The position numbers and the translations under genes were made by a program. The notes below the pieces were generated by a model. The model was not told the DNA's origin. It did not search any database and saw nothing but the letters and a program-made list of their open reading frames with translations. A stretch of DNA of 64,000 bases, taken from NCBI GenBank assembly GCA_049303795.1, contig JBAQNM010000008.1, forward strand, positions 18,288 to 82,287, in the 5' to 3' direction. Positions within the stretch are counted from its first letter, which is position 1. Each line of letters opens with the position of its first letter. The DNA is from Candidatus Moraniibacteriota bacterium (lineage in GTDB: Bacteria; Patescibacteriota; Minisyncoccia; Moranbacterales; UBA2206). Below are positions 19,597 through 51,244 of the stretch, one piece after another.

Positions 19597-20414
19597 GGTT
19601 TTTCCTCCTTACAGTTTAACTGCGATTTCTTCTTGCGCGTACGCAAAAAGTCCAAATCACTGTTCGTAAACAGCGTTCAGAAAGTTTATTAAAATTTTTA
19701 AAAAACACACTTTCTAAATATAAATGGAAGAAAGCTTTCCATCATAGCATATTATTATTATAAAGTCAAGAAAATGTACAGTTAACACCTATTAACTATT
19801 AACCAATGAATATGCCAAAGGGAAGAGAAATTACCCCTTTATAAAAGGAGAAAATCGAAGTATATTTAATAAATTCAAGCCTATAAATTTGCCCAAAGAT
19901 AAAAAAGAACTAGAGCTTTTATACTCTAATTATCCAGTTCTGCTCTCAATAGCTGATATATTCAGAAGTTTAAATCTTAATAAATTTGAATTGGATATGC
20001 AATTGCTAAATTTCACAGTATAAAAACAGAAGACCCACCATTGACACAGATGAGTTCTCTGTTGGTGGGTTGCTAAATCATTTATCGCTTATTTAATGAT
20101 GCGAATAAACTCGAAGGTGGCATCATACGTCTCATTAAATCCAGGCTTTGGCTCGGCAAGTGGCATAAATAATGGTTGTATAGAAAATAGAAACGCAAGA
20201 CCCATCCGCCTAATTTCTTGACTACTTGCTTAGTAGAAAAGGCGGTCACTACCAAGGCAATCGCCATAACCCAAAAACAAGTAACGATAAATAATAAATG
20301 AATGCTTGTCATAACTTGATTTGCTATATCATAAATTTAAGTATTATTTAAAGTAGATTGAAGAATTATTGCAATAATGAGTTTTATGAATTTAGGCGAA
20401 ATTACATCAAATAA

Positions 20415-21599: not shown

Positions 21600-22015
21600 A
21601 ATTACCTAATTATTTCATCTATTCCATCCTGTTTATAAAAAAGTTTGAATCCCACTCGGATATCCAAAATAAAAGCTTATGTAAAGCATTTGATATTTTG
21701 GCTTATTTTATTTTTTGGAACCGTGATTATTGGCTATAAAAAAGTAAAAGGCCACTCAAAATCAGTGGCTTTATACACTAGCTCCGAAGCCTGGAAGAAG
21801 TCCGAACCGCTTTGAAAAAAGAAGGAGCAACAAATTGCCACAGTGGCAGATTAGGTTAATTAACCCAGAGTAGGACTAATCGCCACTTGTTTGCCCGTGT
21901 GTCAAACGATTAAGCAAAAATGGCAGACTTGCCCAATAGGGAGAAATCAACGCGATCGTGAGCAAAATTTGAATCCCGATAAAATGCCTCGGTAAAGGCC
22001 TTTTTTGGTTATGTA

Positions 22016-22061
22016 TTGACAATATTTTTGCCACATGATATTATGTTCCCATAATGGGAAC
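22016..22061 (+). promoter_or_regulatory. Sigma70-type promoter (TTGACA-17-TATTAT) followed by a 17-bp palindromic operator overlapping the higB start codon
   Basis: ttgaca 22016-22021; tattat 22039-22044; gttcccataatgggaac 22045-22061 is a perfect inverted repeat containing ATG 22054. Confidence 0.6.
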
Positions 22062-27956: not shown

Positions 27957-27964
27957 GATTTTTA

Positions 27965-28189
27965 TTATTTAATTAGCTCCTCAAGGGGTTCCTTGAAGGC
28001 ATCGGCAATCTTTTTTATAGTACTAATTCTTGGATCCGGAGTCCGCCCACTCTCGATTTTTGCAATGGTGTGATAATCAAGCCCTGTTTCCCTAACCAAG
28101 TCACTCTTGGAAAGATGATTCTTTTTTTTGAGCCTTTTTACATTCTTTGCGATTTCAGAACATGCCTTATTTAGTGCTTCTTTTTTCAT
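27965..28189 (-). CDS. XRE-family HTH protein (putative controller of the RM operon)
   Basis: 74 aa, HTH LSKSDLVRETGLDYHTIAKIESGRT; first gene of the co-directional RM operon. Confidence 0.55.
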   Translation of the reverse strand: MKKEALNKACSEIAKNVKRLKKKNHLSKSDLVRETGLDYHTIAKIESGRTPDPRISTIKKIADAFKEPLEELIK

Positions 28190-28319
28190 ATTGATAAAGT
28201 TTTACTATGTATCATAATACTATGTATAATTATACCAAATTAAGGGAAAAGCGCAAATAGAAAAAACCGACCTGAAGCCGGTAAAAGTAAGTAGCAAAAG
28301 AGGTAATTTTATACGATAT

Positions 28320-28559
28320 TTAACCTTCTGTTTTTAGTCGATCAATTTTTTCCGAAACAATCTCCATCACTTCTGTCAAAAGGACAACCAATAGAGCCCA
28401 AAGAGCGGTCCAGGTGGCATAAATAAGCAGCTCACGGCCAAATTCCAGCTTATACAGGCCAATAGCAACAATGGCGCCATCCACAAGCGCAAAAAGCGCC
28501 AAGATCATTCGCAAGAGTCTGAAAAATATTCTGAGTGAGTAAAATGTCTTTAATGTCAT
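28320..28559 (-). CDS. Small membrane protein
   Basis: 79 aa, two TM helices. Confidence 0.3.
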   Translation of the reverse strand: MTLKTFYSLRIFFRLLRMILALFALVDGAIVAIGLYKLEFGRELLIYATWTALWALLVVLLTEVMEIVSEKIDRLKTEG

Positions 28560-28573
28560 ATGATTTAAAAATT

Positions 28574-41544: not shown

Positions 41545-41689
41545 CCCTTGATTTATTAAGATAAAATATCACTAATTATTTACACAAATAAATTATAAAA
41601 CAAGGGTTTATATTAAATAAACTTCGAATATTTATTAGCTTGACATTCAGACTAAAATTTAGTAGCTTTGCGTTAGGTAACAAATTTAC

Positions 41690-41716
41690 CAAATCCAATG
41701 ATAGGCATTGGATTTA
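41690..41716 (+). promoter_or_regulatory. 10-bp stem hairpin in the metK 5' leader
   Basis: aaatccaatgataggcattggattt, about 40 nt upstream of metK ATG. Confidence 0.3.
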
Positions 41717-41754
41717 CCGTCCCTTAACAACCAATTTTTAGAGGAGAAAACGTT

Positions 41755-42909
41755 ATGATCTCAGGAATGCCCCAAAACGAACTGAAGAAGATGGAAAGAT
41801 CAGCAGAAAGCGTAACGCCAGGCCATCCGGACAAAATCTGTGATAGAATGGCAGACATGTTCGTTGATGAATGCATGAAAGCAAATCTCGACGTCGCCCC
41901 CAATAAAATGGTCGGGCGTATGGCGGCTGAGGTTACCGGAGGACATGGAGAAGTCTATGTCACCGGTGAATGCCGGATTGCAGGAGCGGAAACACAGGAA
42001 GATCTCCAGACTTTTATCGGCGGATGTGAAAAAAATATCAAAGCCATTTACAAAGAGATCACTGGATGCCAGTTGAACCACGTTCGCCTGAATATGGTTC
42101 CTCAGTCGGCAGATATTGCCGCTGGTGTTGACATTGGCGGCGCAGGAGATCAAGGAGTAATGATCGGGTATGCAACAAATGAAACGCCCGAAATGTTACC
42201 CAGACCTTTTCTGCTGGCCAGAAAAATCACCAAGGCACTCTATGCAGAAGCCATGAATAACCCTGATACCTGGATGCAAACTGACGGAAAGTCAGTGGTA
42301 ATCATGCGCAATGGAACAGTCGCTTCAGTTGTCGTGGCCATTCAACACAAAAATGGCAACGATAAGGAAGCAATGACGGAAGATTTACTGAAAAGGATCG
42401 TCATGCCCGTTCTCGGATACGCACCAACTCGTTTTGTCGTCAATGGCGCAGGAATATTCTGCATCGGCGGGTTCGAGGCCGACGCCGGCACAACCGGACG
42501 TAAATTGATTATTGATAACTACGGTCCCGAACTGCAAATCGGCGGCGGAGCATATTCCGGAAAAGATGCAACCAAGGTTGATCGGTCAGCAGCATACATG
42601 GCTCGTTATATTGCCAAAAATGCTGTAGCCCATGGGATCGGCGGATCGGAAAAAGTTACCGTTCAGTTTGCCTACGCCATCGGAATTGAACAGCCCGAGG
42701 CTATCATTGCAATCAACCAGAAAGGCGTCGACATCTCCGGATGGGTACGACACAACTTCGATCTCAGTCCCAGAGGCATCATTGAACGCCTGAATCTCTG
42801 GCGTCCGATATATCAGGAAGTCTGTACCGGCGGCCATTATGGCCTGAACCATGAGGCGTCAGACAAATTGGACGTCTGGACATGGGAAGATATTGACCCT
42901 TCACTTTAA
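41755..42909 (+). CDS. metK: S-adenosylmethionine synthetase
   Basis: GHPDKICD, GAGDQGVMIGYA, TGRKLIIDNYG, GGGAYSGKDATKVDRSAAY MetK signatures; GC-rich relative to surroundings. Confidence 0.8.
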   Translation: MISGMPQNELKKMERSAESVTPGHPDKICDRMADMFVDECMKANLDVAPNKMVGRMAAEVTGGHGEVYVTGECRIAGAETQEDLQTFIGGCEKNIKAIYKEITGCQLNHVRLNMVPQSADIAAGVDIGGAGDQGVMIGYATNETPEMLPRPFLLARKITKALYAEAMNNPDTWMQTDGKSVVIMRNGTVASVVVAIQHKNGNDKEAMTEDLLKRIVMPVLGYAPTRFVVNGAGIFCIGGFEADAGTTGRKLIIDNYGPELQIGGGAYSGKDATKVDRSAAYMARYIAKNAVAHGIGGSEKVTVQFAYAIGIEQPEAIIAINQKGVDISGWVRHNFDLSPRGIIERLNLWRPIYQEVCTGGHYGLNHEASDKLDVWTWEDIDPSL

Positions 42910-42921
42910 AGGAGAATCACC

Positions 42922-44241
42922 ATGACAAACAAAAAACCCACCGACCAGAACAGAAGTATGATGGGCATGCGCAGCGCCGACACCGGTAATTGGGGTGTTG
43001 GCACTTCAATCTTACATGCAGGTTACGACGCAGACAGATCCGAAGGAGCAGCAGTTGTACCATATTTTCCATGCTCAACTTATGCCTTTTCTTCGGCAGA
43101 AAAAGGAGCCGAGGCATTTGAGCTGGCGTTAGCCGGCAGTAATGAAGGTGAACTGATCTACGCTCGGGTAAACCACCCGAATGCGCAGATACTGGAGGAT
43201 CGATTGAAATATATCGAGCCAGGTACTGACACGGCATTGATTTTCAATTCGGGAATGTCAGCCATCTTCACAAGCATACTGGCACTTCTACCAAAAGAAA
43301 AGACCTTGGTCTTCTCTGATCCGCTTTACGGAGGAACGTATCATTTTTTTGAAACCATTCTGGGCCAAAAGTTCGGCTATAATGTGCAGATGGTCGACAC
43401 GAGTGATATTGAGAAAACCGGAAAGCTTTTTGCGGAAATTGGGTCAAATCTGGGTATGGTGTTTTTGGAAACACCAGCTAACCCAACCCTGAGGATGACC
43501 GATATTAAACTGGTTGCAAAGATGGCAAAAACAGCTAATCCGAATTGTTTTGTTATGGTGGATAATACCTTCTTGGGATTATTCCAAGCCGTATTCAAAA
43601 TTTCGCGAGATGTTGATTTTGTCGTTTACTCAGCGACCAAATACATCGGCGGTCATTCCACGGTGGTGGCAGGGGCTCTTATGGCCCGAGAAGAAATGCG
43701 CACCCATATTCCCAGCATTAAAGAAATGCGCATCATGGCTGGAACGATTCTGCCACCATACGAAGCATGGACATTGCTTCAGCAGATCAAAACCTACCCC
43801 ATGCGTATGAGAAAACAGGCCAAAAATGCGACTATTATCGCAAAGGCCTTGCAAAAAAATCAATTCGTAAAGAAAGTCATTCATCCATCTCTCCTGACGG
43901 AAAATGACCCGGCATACGAAATTTATAAAAGGCAGTGCACTGGTCCCGGAGCGATAATTTCTTTTTATCTCTACAAAGATCAGCGCAAATATGCCTCCCT
44001 CTTTCTTGACGCAGTTAAGCAAACAAATATCATCATGATGGCCGTTTCCCTTGGTGGGGTTGAAACATTAATCGAACACCCCGCCTCGATGACCCATAGT
44101 GAGATGCCACCGGAAGTGCAACGCAAAAACGGAATCAGTGAGTCGCTCATTCGATTGTCCGTTGGCATTGAAGACCCCGAGGACATCATCGCTGCCCTTA
44201 TCGGATCACTAAACATCATTGATTTTATTGGTCTCGGCTAG
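42922..44241 (+). CDS. PLP-dependent Cys/Met metabolism enzyme (O-acetylhomoserine sulfhydrylase/methionine gamma-lyase family)
   Basis: SATKYIGGHSTVVAGAL (PLP-Lys region) and overall MetY/MetC-like fold signature. Confidence 0.7.
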   Translation: MTNKKPTDQNRSMMGMRSADTGNWGVGTSILHAGYDADRSEGAAVVPYFPCSTYAFSSAEKGAEAFELALAGSNEGELIYARVNHPNAQILEDRLKYIEPGTDTALIFNSGMSAIFTSILALLPKEKTLVFSDPLYGGTYHFFETILGQKFGYNVQMVDTSDIEKTGKLFAEIGSNLGMVFLETPANPTLRMTDIKLVAKMAKTANPNCFVMVDNTFLGLFQAVFKISRDVDFVVYSATKYIGGHSTVVAGALMAREEMRTHIPSIKEMRIMAGTILPPYEAWTLLQQIKTYPMRMRKQAKNATIIAKALQKNQFVKKVIHPSLLTENDPAYEIYKRQCTGPGAIISFYLYKDQRKYASLFLDAVKQTNIIMMAVSLGGVETLIEHPASMTHSEMPPEVQRKNGISESLIRLSVGIEDPEDIIAALIGSLNIIDFIGLG

Positions 44242-44339
44242 GAAAAGCTGGACCAAAATTAAAATCAATAAAAAAACAATCTTAAAGAGGGGGTGCGATC
44301 TTTGTATCGCTCCCCCTTCATTATTAAAAGGAGGTGCTC

Positions 44340-46004
44340 ATGAACAGAAATGTTTTAATTGCTAAGGCCTGGCCATATGCCAATGGTCCTTTGCATATTG
44401 GACATCTGGCAGGACTACTCGGTGCCGATGTCTTGGCGAGATATTTTCGCCTGGCCGGAGACAACATACTATTCGTATCAGGAACCGACTGTCATGGAAC
44501 GCCCATTATGAATCGGGCGATTGACGAAGGAATCAACCCTGAAGATGTTGTTAAAAAATACCACAAACAATTCACCGAGTGTTTTCAGAGATTAGGCTTT
44601 ACTCATGATCTCTACACGCTCACCTATACACCGGAACATCACAAGATGGTGCAGCAAATTTTTCGCAAGCTTCATGAAAAAGGACATCTCGTTCCCAGAA
44701 ATGAAATTCAGTTATTCTGTCCGGACTGCAATCAGTTTTTAGTGGATAGGCTGGTTGAAGGAAATTGTCCCTATTGCCATGAAGCAAATGCGCGCGGAGA
44801 TCAATGCGATGCTTGCAGTAAAACCTACGAAGCCATTGAACTTCTTGACCCGCATTGCAAAAAATGCGGTCAAGCTGCGGAAAAAAGAGCATCGGAACAT
44901 CTGTATTTTGATTTGGCCAATTTTTCAGAACAACTCCAGAGCTGGTCTTCTCAAGTTAACGGTCAGTGGAGAGAAAACGCCAAAAGCGTTACGCAAAGCT
45001 GGCTGGACAGCAACTTGCACGACAGGGCGGTTACCCGTGATTTAGAATGGGGCATCGATGTCCCCGTTCAAGGTTTCGAGAAGAAAAAAATCTATGTCTG
45101 GTTTGATGCGGTATTGGGTTATTTAACAACCTCCATTATTCACTGCGGCGGCGATATTGAAAGCGGCCCGTGGGAAAAATGGTGGCGCCCAAATAAAGAC
45201 CTGCTTCATTACTACGTTCACGGGAAAGACAATATTCCCTTCCACACAATCATCTTTCCGGCAATGCTCATGGGACTTGGAAACCTGGAGCTGCCCACCC
45301 ACATTATTTCATCTGAATATCTTAACCTGCCGGCTGGTCACAAATTCTCCAAGTCTTCCGGCTACGGAGCAACCCTACCTCAATTCTTTGATCTGGTTGA
45401 TTCGGTCGAAGCTCTTGAAGTGGATTCAATGAGATTCTTCTTGATCATCCGTGGTCCGGAAACAAAAGATTCCCATTTCTCATGGGAAGATCTGACAATG
45501 CTTCACAACTCCGAACTGGTTAATAAATTCGGCAATATTGTGAGCAGAATTACAAGTCTGATCTCGAATAAATTCGATAATTCTGTTCCGAAATCATCAG
45601 ATCGCTCTCATGAACAAATCGCCTTATTGGAAAAAGTGGCCATAGCATATCAGGCCACTGGTGAATACATTGAAAAAGGTGAGTTTCGCCTGGGCTGTCA
45701 GACAGTCATCGAACTGATAAGGGAGGCCAATAACCTGATCAATCTGGAAGAGCCCTGGAAACAAATCAGTCTTGATCCGCAAAAAGCAATGGACACGCTA
45801 AACACATCAGTGCAGGTTTTGTTTAATCTGCGAACATTGCTCGAACCATTTATTCCATTTGCGGCGCAAAAATTAACCGAGATATTGAATGCCTCATCCA
45901 TTCCAAAGCAGTGGAAAATGCAAATACTGCCAAATGGCTGGAAACTGGGTGAAAACAATCACATCTTCACTCGAATTAAAGAAGACCAACTGCCGAAAGA
46001 ATAG
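44340..46004 (+). CDS. metG: Methionyl-tRNA synthetase
   Basis: HIGH motif PLHIGHLAG; zinc knuckles CPDC...CPYC...CDAC; KMSKS variant HKFSKSSG; RBS aaaggaggtg. Confidence 0.9.
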   Translation: MNRNVLIAKAWPYANGPLHIGHLAGLLGADVLARYFRLAGDNILFVSGTDCHGTPIMNRAIDEGINPEDVVKKYHKQFTECFQRLGFTHDLYTLTYTPEHHKMVQQIFRKLHEKGHLVPRNEIQLFCPDCNQFLVDRLVEGNCPYCHEANARGDQCDACSKTYEAIELLDPHCKKCGQAAEKRASEHLYFDLANFSEQLQSWSSQVNGQWRENAKSVTQSWLDSNLHDRAVTRDLEWGIDVPVQGFEKKKIYVWFDAVLGYLTTSIIHCGGDIESGPWEKWWRPNKDLLHYYVHGKDNIPFHTIIFPAMLMGLGNLELPTHIISSEYLNLPAGHKFSKSSGYGATLPQFFDLVDSVEALEVDSMRFFLIIRGPETKDSHFSWEDLTMLHNSELVNKFGNIVSRITSLISNKFDNSVPKSSDRSHEQIALLEKVAIAYQATGEYIEKGEFRLGCQTVIELIREANNLINLEEPWKQISLDPQKAMDTLNTSVQVLFNLRTLLEPFIPFAAQKLTEILNASSIPKQWKMQILPNGWKLGENNHIFTRIKEDQLPKE

Positions 46005-49211: not shown

Positions 49212-50039
49212 TTATTTTTTAACTTTATCCCAATTAAAATTCCAAGGATCATCTTTTCGTCCCGGTGCAATCTGATTGTGTCCTAGAATATTGTTAATTT
49301 TATATTCGCCTTTCAAGCTCTTGATCAATTTATTCAAACTGTCATATTGATCTTGTGTCAATTTTTCAGTTTTAGTTGTCATCATTTCAATACCCAGAGA
49401 AAAGCCATTCACGCCCGTTCGCGAGTCTGGCATCTTACTCTCTCCTGCATGATAGGCGATGTCATAATCCCTGACAAGTCTATAGATTTGACCTTTTCGA
49501 TCAATCAAGTAATGCGGAGCAACGCCATAAGATTTATATTCAGCGATGAGGCCACTCACACTATACGGATCATCTCCAATCGCATCATATGAAGAATGAA
49601 TAATGATTGTATCAATTTTTCGGCCTGAACTTTTTTGAAAACCCCAGTTGACTAATTTATCTGTAATTTTTAAGGTTGAACTTTTCACCTCTTGAATTTC
49701 TTCCTTCACAACGTCCGGAATGTTTTTCTTTTCTTCATCATCAATATTGACTTGCTCTAGTGCAATCTTTCCGTCTTCTTTTTTATCCATTTCTATGGCG
49801 GGCTTTTCTGGTTGCACCTGCACAGCATCTTCCTCCTCAACATCCTTTTCAATCATTTCTGCTATTGGGCTATCGATAGAAGCTTCCTGCAAATCCAATT
49901 CCACTTTTCCATCAATGTTCTGTACTTTTTTATAATACAAAAAGCTACCCGCAATAATGAGAATAGATAGGCTTAAAATGGCAATTATTTTAACCGATTT
50001 TTTCCTTAGCATAGATCTATCATAACAATTTTTGAGCAT
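49212..50039 (-). CDS. N-acetylmuramoyl-L-alanine amidase (amidase_2/PGRP domain), membrane-anchored
   Basis: TM anchor, acidic linker, C-terminal IIIHSSYD...YHAGES amidase_2-like blocks. Confidence 0.55.
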   Translation of the reverse strand: MLKNCYDRSMLRKKSVKIIAILSLSILIIAGSFLYYKKVQNIDGKVELDLQEASIDSPIAEMIEKDVEEEDAVQVQPEKPAIEMDKKEDGKIALEQVNIDDEEKKNIPDVVKEEIQEVKSSTLKITDKLVNWGFQKSSGRKIDTIIIHSSYDAIGDDPYSVSGLIAEYKSYGVAPHYLIDRKGQIYRLVRDYDIAYHAGESKMPDSRTGVNGFSLGIEMMTTKTEKLTQDQYDSLNKLIKSLKGEYKINNILGHNQIAPGRKDDPWNFNWDKVKK

Positions 50040-50437
50040 ATTGACAACATTTTGTTTAACTATTATATTTGAAGTAGTTAATTTTATATCATTCTGAGCG
50101 AAGTAAAGAATCTACCTGTATTAAATACCAATCATTCTTCATTACGCTTAGGATGATAGTAAAATTACAAAAAAATGTTCTTTGAACTAAAAATAAAGTT
50201 GCTTAATTTTAGTAACTTTTAAAAAATCACATATTTTTCGTTGACCGTGCCCGCGCTTTTTATTTCGGGCTAAACCTAAACCTCGATCCTTCGTGATCGG
50301 AAACCCTTTAACGGAAAAGGCTAAAGCGTTACAGAGTGAAAAATCCACCGAATGTTCGGTGGTGTCGACGCAATGATCATCGCGTCGAATGAAAAACATT
50401 TTCATTCATTTTCATCAATTTTTTTGGAGGTGCCGCC

Positions 50438-50572
50438 ATGATGAGTAAACATTCCCCGTTACACGAAGAAGATCTGCACGAAGACCTGATTGAAAAAGCC
50501 GTGAAAAGACTGCATGCGCATACCGTCGAAGACGTCGCCGTTACCGGCCGACAGGACCTGGGAATCGTTTAA
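50438..50572 (+). CDS. GC-rich small ORF (44 aa, His/acidic-rich) with strong RBS and terminator
   Basis: GGAGG 7 nt before ATG; MMSKHSPLHEEDLHEDLIEKAVKRLHAHTVEDVAVTGRQDLGIV; followed by terminator at 50608-50650. Confidence 0.35.
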   Translation: MMSKHSPLHEEDLHEDLIEKAVKRLHAHTVEDVAVTGRQDLGIV

Positions 50573-50607
50573 CGGAAATAATGTGAATCCCGGTTTACTG
50601 AAGGGTA

Positions 50608-50650
50608 GACCCGCCCCCGTTGCACAAGTGCCGCGGGGGTAAATTTTTTT
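50608..50650 (+). terminator. Rho-independent terminator
   Basis: cccccg...cggggg stem followed by T7 tract. Confidence 0.55.
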
Positions 50651-50762
50651 AATGTGTCCGTTTAAGTATTTAAAAAAAATAATAGTCAACTATTTTCCTC
50701 TTTTTGAAAATCTGTGCTAAACTTAACTCTGTTGTTAAATAAATAATTTATAAAAAAATAAA

Positions 50763-51116
50763 ATGCAAAACATCCAAGACCTGTTCGACACGCTTCAAGT
50801 TACAAAAAAGGAGCAAAAAGAAATCAAAAAAGAATACCGTGATACGCTAACAAATGCCAATGGATACACGGAAGTGGAAGAGGAGTTGAAAAAATTGAAA
50901 GAAAAAAAGAAACAAATTGAAGCCACAACTCAAAGCCGTATGGGTGAACGCTATGTGCTTTTGGAAAATCTTAAAGCTAAAGTGGAAGAAATCGATCAAG
51001 CCATCACCGATATCGCTATGTCCACTCTGATGGAAGGGAAAAGTATTGAAATCAAAGATCAATATGATAATCTCTACGAACCAATCTATAAAATCAGTTT
51101 CAAAAAAGCTTCTTAA
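50763..51116 (+). CDS. Hypothetical coiled-coil protein
   Basis: 117 aa, Lys/Glu-rich heptads. Confidence 0.35.
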   Translation: MQNIQDLFDTLQVTKKEQKEIKKEYRDTLTNANGYTEVEEELKKLKEKKKQIEATTQSRMGERYVLLENLKAKVEEIDQAITDIAMSTLMEGKSIEIKDQYDNLYEPIYKISFKKAS

Positions 51117-51244
51117 TTATTAAAAGCTAACAAAAAAAAGTAACGGGAATATGTCACAAACATATTCCTTTTTTGTTTGACAGAAAGCCTTTTTTAGACT
51201 AAAATTCTAAACTGAATATAAGTTGATAATTTAAATTTAAATTT

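Follow-up and report, generated by a model that had tools for sequence, protein, structure and literature searches.

Phage morons, in which a single small open reading frame (ORF) is served by its own promoter and its own terminator, are among the closest described counterparts of the locus reported here, a segment at positions 50042-50692 of a 64,000-nt stretch of DNA from a Candidatus Moraniibacteriota bacterium (contig JBAQNM010000008.1; the whole stretch is called the window below). Type I toxin-antitoxin loci and the dual-function systems SgrS/SgrT and SR1/SR1P likewise have an ORF of at most 50 codons within a structured RNA some hundreds of nucleotides long that has its own promoter and terminator, at loci that are lineage-specific and without homologues, as is the cassette here. 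Small variable segments are characterized (PMC2884548) as a major type of bacterial species-level genome diversity. Set against these systems, the segment is best supported as an orphan, lineage-specific small variable segment holding a moron-like mini-gene, that is, as an example of a kind already known. We regard it, with moderate confidence, as an autonomous, horizontally acquired small-gene cassette in one Candidatus Moraniibacteriota lineage.

The likeness to a moron lies in the own promoter, single small ORF and own terminator (on consensus and fold evidence only), and also in the atypical composition, the precise presence or absence between collinear relatives and the position between two intact genes. 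Unlike a moron, the cassette lies outside any phage or prophage, has no homologue in the phage collections searched and no PHROG match, and carries a 5' untranslated region (UTR) of about 360 nt, which would be unusually long for a moron. Because it lies outside a prophage, the cassette is said to work like a moron and not to be one. With the small variable segments (PMC2884548) it shares the form of a sub-kilobase intergenic insertion or deletion that separates close genomes, with different inserts found in the same spacer (loci L011/L012, below); that category is descriptive and carries no mechanism, whereas the cassette has a full set of expression signals. Type I toxin-antitoxin loci differ in that the cassette peptide is acidic and hydrophilic and not a membrane toxin, and in that no convincing antisense promoter was found, the sole candidate on the minus strand (50708-50679) matching the consensus at 9/12 positions, with such sites as numerous as expected from shuffled sequence. 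Finally, riboswitch-controlled small ORFs and attenuator leader peptides resemble the cassette in their long, hairpin-bearing 5' leader and in a weak hairpin with a U-run ahead of the Shine-Dalgarno (SD) sequence, but the cassette has no aptamer match, conservation, predicted SD sequestration, run of regulatory codons or controlled downstream operon.

The evidence for acquisition is comparative. Relatives were sampled through contigs carrying homologues of the neighboring 117-aa gene (n = 66; loci are labelled L plus a number), and alignment with their empty sites defined a precise insertion of 651 bp, with an ambiguity of +/- 1 nt at the boundary, in the intergenic spacer that separates an AmpD-type amidase gene from the conserved 117-aa gene, neither of which is disrupted. 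In L016, the 117-aa protein is identical to that of the window, the flanking DNA shows 88.5-88.9% identity along some 3 kb to either side, and the distance from the amidase gene to the 117-aa gene is 107 bp, as compared to 723 bp in the window. The spacers of L003 (117-aa gene 87% identical) and L004-L006 (77%) are likewise short, with clean empty sites at the same point. With a slash for the insertion point, the empty site reads AGCATAT/TTTTCTCTTTTTTGAAA in L003 (junction AGCATAT/TTTTCTC) and AGCACATC/TTTCCTCTTTTTGAAAA in L016 (continuing TTTCCTC), and the occupied site in the window reads GAGCATAT, then the 651 bp, then TTTTCCTC. The clean empty sites in L016, L003 and L004-L006 show that the GC-rich region is part of a precise insertion. 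The remaining relatives have spacers of 71-266 bp or a spacer content unrelated to the insert; the insert was absent in every related species sampled, including L016 at about 89% flank identity.

Within the lineage that carries it, the insert with its junctions is 100% identical in four assemblies of one population (L001, L002, L014 and L015), the identical DNA being that of GCA_049286985.1, GCA_049305975.1, the Logan assembly of SRR28062879 and the window. The preliminary description of this DNA, made from the window alone, had proposed that absence from every related genome could point to a contaminant. That absence was indeed found in the genomes sampled, but the insert sits inside contigs of separately produced assemblies, which excludes contamination and argues for a lineage-specific acquisition. 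What looked like a riboswitch (a GC-rich, hairpin-rich, SD-bearing island in an AT-rich genome) is, by comparison with relatives, recently acquired foreign DNA. Neither a target-site duplication (TSD) of at least 2 nt nor a convincing terminal inverted repeat (TIR) could be seen at the junctions, read by eye, and a repeat search found no second copy of the insert within the window; the idea of a repeat or mobile element in the window was dismissed on these grounds.

The same intergenic position (50040-50762 in the window) is occupied in L011/L012 (2458-3001) by a 542-bp spacer without similarity to the insert, in which a 49-aa ORF, annotated on the opposite strand and hydrophobic when translated by eye, stands beside G+C-rich inverted repeats that were read as a hairpin. 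Since unrelated content is found at the same spot, the spacer between the amidase and 117-aa genes is a variable site, and from these sequences it looks like a hotspot for the gain of small genes. The cassette is a small example of the way in which streamlined genomes of the candidate phyla radiation (CPR) continue to acquire whole orphan mini-genes in intergenic DNA that varies between lineages.

The composition of the insert agrees with a foreign origin. Over 50226-50650 the GC content is 46.8% against a window average of 36.5%, placing this region in the top 2.6% of 425-nt segments, with the metK/metB/metRS coding block higher still (up to 52.5%). Its highest GC content per 150 nt (0.56) is the highest among the 21 non-coding gaps, followed by a gap at 0.49 and then the tRNA loci. 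The earlier figure of about 50% GC is thus too high. The ORF within the insert has a GC content at third codon positions (GC3) of 0.545, a value that none of the 45 host genes examined reaches (their mean is 0.34 and their maximum 0.49). The description of the region as a compositionally foreign cassette was borne out by this value and by its place in a 651-bp insertion that all relatives sampled lack.

The insert carries a complete and correctly ordered set of expression signals (features are on the plus strand unless stated). A promoter scan found P1, a near-consensus sigma-70 promoter at the left edge of the insert, at 50041-50069 (TTGACA, a 17-nt spacer and TATATT; 11/12), with a predicted transcription start near 50076. 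P1 is one of four matches of at least 11/12 on both strands of the window, all of which fall in intergenic non-coding gaps, and a match of this grade arises by chance in a shuffled 201-nt AT-rich segment with P = 0.011. At the other end, a folded 3' module at 50592-50650 consists of a hairpin (50592-50611), a terminator stem (50613-50640), the spacer AAA and a U7 tract (50644-50650), with a folding energy of -32.1 kcal/mol (z = -2.72). The terminator stem has eight pairs (six G-C and two G-U) with an apical 3-bp extension and classes as an intrinsic terminator. The strong terminator with a stem and seven T residues that had been described was recovered with its stem and U7 tract in place, although the 3-nt spacer makes it less of a textbook case than the word strong implies. 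Downstream of it, the remaining 42 nt of the insert (50651-50692, bounded by comparison with relatives) form an AT-rich, featureless tail. Opposite the leader, a terminator-like hairpin is present on the minus strand at 50362-50345.

Between these signals lies the 44-aa ORF MMSKHSPLHEEDLHEDLIEKAVKRLHAHTVEDVAVTGRQDLGIV (50438-50572), identical to the residues quoted in the preliminary description and preceded by the extended SD sequence GGAGGTG (50426-50432), which forms a 7-nt match to the anti-SD and ends 5 nt before the ATG at 50438, its GGAGG core (50426-50430) ending 7 nt before it. In 3000 dinucleotide shuffles of the region, an ATG-initiated ORF of at least 44 codons was present in 68%, so the length of the ORF carries no weight; GGAGG at -15 to -5 of an ORF of at least 44 codons was present in just 1.1%. 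Additionally, the GC contents at codon positions 1, 2 and 3 are 0.70, 0.27 and 0.55, and a difference between the first two positions of 0.43 or more was reached in 0/3000 shuffles. A long antisense ORF (50459-50689) lies, by reading, in the codon-aligned shadow frame, as is expected opposite a real gene. The SD sequence stands out in a genome region where 31 of 45 host genes have none. These sequence statistics make it probable that the ORF is a real, if small, coding sequence, and the earlier proposal of an SD-led 44-aa ORF rich in His and acidic residues was confirmed in its exact length and SD sequence and strengthened by a coding-like periodicity that no shuffle matched.

By residue count, the peptide contains nine acidic and five basic residues and five His, with a net charge of about -4 and no hydrophobic stretch; the His residues (5, 9, 14, 26 and 28) are scattered and form no run. 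AlphaFold2 predicted one amphipathic helix over residues 10-36 (mean predicted local distance difference test score, pLDDT, 67.5). These properties lead us to infer that the peptide works through a binding partner, either a protein or a metal, and is neither an enzyme nor a membrane toxin. A lasso-peptide or other ribosomally synthesized and post-translationally modified peptide precursor, a His attenuator and a hydrophobic toxin were each rejected on reading the sequence. Searches of the peptide against 5.8 billion clustered proteins (word-indexed) and 1.84 billion representatives (HMMER) returned itself alone, annotated as hypothetical in a Candidatus Moraniibacteriota metagenome-assembled genome, and no match was found in Pfam, PHROGs, PADLOC, NCBIfam or the PDB. 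The translated search that had been suggested (tblastn) gave no match among phages and plasmids, and a back-translated pattern of the peptide (the ORF padded to 50 aa) was not matched in viral, genome and metagenome contigs. At the nucleotide level, blastn of the cassette detected no similarity to phages, plasmids or E. coli, and none of the 21-27-nt probes taken from the leader, the ORF and the terminator had an exact match in the viral, genome and metagenome contig collections. With no relatives of the peptide, nothing general can be learned from it short of experiments.

Combined, these features outline how the cassette would work if it is transcribed and translated, as its signals lead us to expect. 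A foreign 651-bp segment would have entered the amidase/117-aa spacer in one lineage; transcription from P1 would start near 50076 and the nascent RNA would at once form a 5' hairpin of about 33 bp, with a possible second promoter just 5' of the GC-rich part. A hairpin-rich leader of about 200 nt, not aptamer-like, would follow, after which the extended SD would direct translation of the 44-codon gene into an acidic, His-rich, single-helix peptide, and the intrinsic terminator would end the transcript and also insulate the downstream 117-aa gene.

The candidate second promoter (50199-50232; TTGCTT, a 17-nt spacer and AAAAAT) was recognized from a 30/34 BLAST match to L004 (5970-6002), where the matched bases lie directly 5' of the ATG of the 117-aa gene and in L004-L006 comprise its promoter and short 5' UTR. 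This P2-like segment ends exactly at the onset of the GC-rich part of the insert and differs from the window's own equivalent region (50720-50762). The match suggests a second promoter and hints that the insert was partly derived from the promoter region of a related genome, the significance of the match being moderate because the sequence is AT-rich. A divergent promoter-like site of the amidase gene on the minus strand (50019-50047; TTGTCA, a 17-nt spacer and TG-TATGAT; 10/12 with the TG), found in the promoter scan, has its -35 hexamer made from the first six bases of the insert, which would mean that the insert now supplies the -35 of an amidase promoter. The amidase start assigned by NCBI is 50012 (product of 266 aa). 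About 7 nt lie between the end of the extended -10 (TG-TATGAT) and this ATG, and the gene seems to have no leader or almost none.

The leader itself (50240-50437) is a GC-rich string of simple hairpins: cgatccttcgtgatcg at 50284-50299, ccaccgaatgttcggtgg at 50345-50362, cgcaatgatcatcgcg at 50369-50384 (the inner part of a 7-bp stem at 50365-50388), two further perfect 5-bp hairpins at 50249-50270 and 50305-50320, and a 9-bp A/U hairpin at 50387-50407 followed by an interrupted U-run to 50425. The hairpins, GGAGG, 44-codon ORF and terminator of the preliminary description were all found where it had placed them.

Other explanations of the insert were considered in light of these results, two of which give the weight to RNA. 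In one, the product is a regulatory or dual-function RNA, a plus-strand transcript of about 420-570 nt acting as a small RNA (sRNA) or in the manner of SgrS or SR1, with the ORF secondary or incidental. Dual-function sRNAs have a similar size and layout, with a long 5' part, a small ORF and a terminator, and the GC-rich island in AT-rich non-coding DNA, bracketed by a promoter and a terminator, would suit such an RNA. The leader has a moderate excess of perfect local hairpins (five against 2.0 expected, P = 0.012; for stems of at least 7 bp, P = 0.015) and the full 425-nt region folds with z = -3.4, helped by the terminator module (z about -2.7); the fold of 50076-50445 reaches z = -4.84, driven by the 5' hairpin (50079-50167). 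The leader on its own (50240-50445) nevertheless folds no better than chance (z = -1.06, with 27/200 shuffles as good), so that the structured leader of the earlier account is weakly supported, by its modestly enriched local hairpins (P about 0.01). A panhandle pairing the 5' and 3' parts (50229-50245 with 50570-50586, -18 kcal/mol) is matched by 10% of shuffles and was rejected as evidence. There is also no Rfam match and there are no homologues in which covariation could be sought, and the strong coding-type periodicity and optimal SD run counter to an ORF that is incidental to a structured RNA. This explanation is therefore considered unlikely. The second, a riboswitch or other ligand-sensing leader for a metal-binding peptide, or a leader peptide for the 117-aa and RND efflux genes, draws on the His, Asp and Glu content of the peptide, the genes for a CzcB/CusB-like adaptor and RND pump downstream, and the weak A/U hairpin and U-run (50387-50425) ahead of the SD. 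However, Rfam at gathering score found three tRNAs elsewhere in the window and nothing in the region, while at E<=10 over 50000-50800 it returned noise alone (hits to snoRNA models and a wrong-strand SAM-II hit scoring 14.8 bits where the cut-off is 44); ARAGORN likewise placed three tRNAs, all elsewhere, and no tRNA or tmRNA in the region. The SD is unpaired in the predicted minimum free energy and centroid folds, the leader structure is at chance level and conserved nowhere, and the hairpins at 50365-50388 and 50387-50407 overlap by just 2 nt, with no competing terminator/antiterminator helix apparent. The ORF is set apart from the 117-aa gene by a terminator, its His codons form no run, and relatives without the cassette run the same downstream operon. 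Both the riboswitch and the regulatory leader peptide that had been offered as candidates are consequently judged very unlikely.

A different possibility is that the segment is passenger DNA without function, a scrap of another genome or of a mobile element, perhaps including a former small gene, that was caught by illegitimate recombination at a variable intergenic position, has had no time to decay and retains signals of its donor that are of no use in the present host. Its confinement to a single lineage without relatives is consistent with this, as are the different small insert in the same spacer elsewhere (L011/L012; 542 bp with a 49-aa ORF), the decay of both copies of the hairpin unit described below, and the lack of mobility signatures in the repeat search of the window and the junctions read by eye. 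Conversely, none of the four elements (promoter, SD, ORF and terminator) is broken and they stand in the correct order, and if the amidase promoter draws its -35 from the insert, loss of the insert might have an effect; passenger DNA is possible, but less probable than not. An assembly chimera or a contaminant joined into the contig would account for the absence in all related genomes and the atypical composition, yet it would have to recur with identical junctions in GCA_049286985.1, GCA_049305975.1, the Logan SRR28062879 assembly and the window, between syntenic host genes on both sides and without similarity to E. coli, plasmid or phage records, and is scarcely credible. The acquired small-gene cassette is accordingly retained as the preferred reading, although several points weigh against it. 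The surroundings are not a prophage and the likeness to a moron is one of anatomy alone; no TSD, TIR or second copy indicates a mechanism of insertion; and the terminator has a 3-nt AAA spacer before its U-tract and was missed by a simple terminator scan, owing to the loop-size limits of that scan. One annotation pipeline run on identical DNA (L014) did not call the ORF. Furthermore, neither the peptide nor the DNA has a homologue in any collection searched, so that purifying selection is not demonstrable, and all copies are 100% identical and therefore give no signal in the ratio of nonsynonymous to synonymous substitutions (dN/dS).

The 5' end of the insert holds a second element. A long imperfect hairpin of about 33 bp (50079-50167; arms 50079-50113 and 50133-50167) is predicted to form from two inverted, decayed copies of a 25-nt unit, and contains two G-U pairs on the plus strand that would be A-C mismatches on the minus strand. 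The near-consensus copy TCATTCTGAGCGAAGTAAAGAATC (50089-50112; pattern GTCAT-NNN-GAGCGAAGCGA-NNN-ATC) lies in the left arm and is a slightly decayed form of GTCATYCTGAGCGAAGCGAAGRATC; one arm of the hairpin has three mismatches and the other at least seven. The GTCATYCTGAGCGAAGCGAAGRATC pattern was present in 63 IMG/VR stretches with locus GC contents of 37-69%, against an estimated 0.01 or so expected by chance. Loosening the pattern by freeing three stem positions per side gave 96 IMG/VR stretches and 107 distinct instances (viral loci with the unit are L017-L114), and the stem triplets were complementary in 100/107 instances through 10 pairing combinations, which identifies the unit as a real hairpin. 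Frequent spurious ORF words, among them VILSEAKNL and RFAQDDK, arise from this unit. Its anatomy is GTCAT, a 5-bp stem, tandem G-A, a GC-GAA-GC apex, tandem G-A, a closing stem and ATC. The GCGAAGC apex falls in the GCGNAGC class, termed 'extraordinarily stable mini-hairpin DNA' in PMC13037366.

As in the insert, units often occur in inverted pairs (e.g., L041:504-572 and L019:11940-12015). Relative to flanking genes in viral contigs, 34 units lie in the same orientation and 33 in the opposite one, a balance that points to a DNA-level element comparable to repetitive extragenic palindromic (REP) sequences or REPINs and not to an mRNA signal. The unit is also present, unannotated, on plasmids of Planktothrix, Calothrix, Oscillatoria, Granulicella, Hymenobacter and Phocaeicola, the hosts being cyanobacteria, Acidobacteria and Bacteroidota. 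The 64-kb window holds no other copy, nor do some 80 kb of loci from related Moraniibacteriota; the unit therefore arrived with the insert, which is a further sign of foreign origin. The unit is not in Rfam 15, and literature searched by sequence strings and by the spurious ORF words yielded no prior description; a hammerhead-like reading was rejected by eye, as the core lacks CUGANGA spacing.

The 5' hairpin resembles REP doublets and REPINs (PMC3116915) in being an inverted doublet of a short hairpin unit, one whose orientation neutrality fits a DNA-level element. REPINs, in contrast, are abundant in each genome and lineage-specific, whereas the unit is single-copy here and near-identical across about 100 phage-like contigs of 37-69% GC and plasmids; additionally, it occupies the first 90 nt or so of the insert and not its ends. 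No gene for a REP-associated tyrosine transposase (RAYT, HUH Y1) was seen in the window and the fetched loci. A speculative proposal, to which we give little credence, is that the unit is the recognition element of an as yet undescribed mobilization or recombination system acting on single-stranded DNA, with the small-gene cassette as its cargo. If true, it would account for a precise, TSD-less insertion into a CPR chromosome and would make the hairpins vehicles that shuffle orphan mini-genes. Present in several phyla and covarying, the 25-nt unit is the more intriguing lead from this locus and could merit its own study.

The surroundings of the cassette are those of a host chromosome. The flanking 20 kb encode GlmS, MetK, MetRS, DXS (DXP synthase), the amidase, an RND pump and TrmB regulators, and downstream of the cassette the 117-aa gene, for a coiled-coil protein, is followed by RND efflux genes, as it is in relatives without the cassette. 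A gene for a MarR/HTH_34-type regulator separates the 117-aa gene from the RND adaptor gene in several relatives, namely L003 (789-1307), L008 (4477-4947) and L012 (4557-5024), and is missing in the window (51117-51244) and in L016. GC peaks were also noted in other non-coding gaps of the window, at 27957-28573 (0.49 per 150 nt), 21600-22053 (0.47) and 19597-20414 (0.45); Rfam gave no match at gathering score in these gaps, which may hold small genes or unrecognized RNAs, and one of them contains an 11/12 promoter match (22016). Finally, the block of metK, O-acetylhomoserine sulfhydrylase and metRS genes (41661-45572) combines the highest GC content of the window with strong GGAGG-type SD sequences, a pattern that, judged from composition, could be due to high expression or to an older horizontal acquisition.

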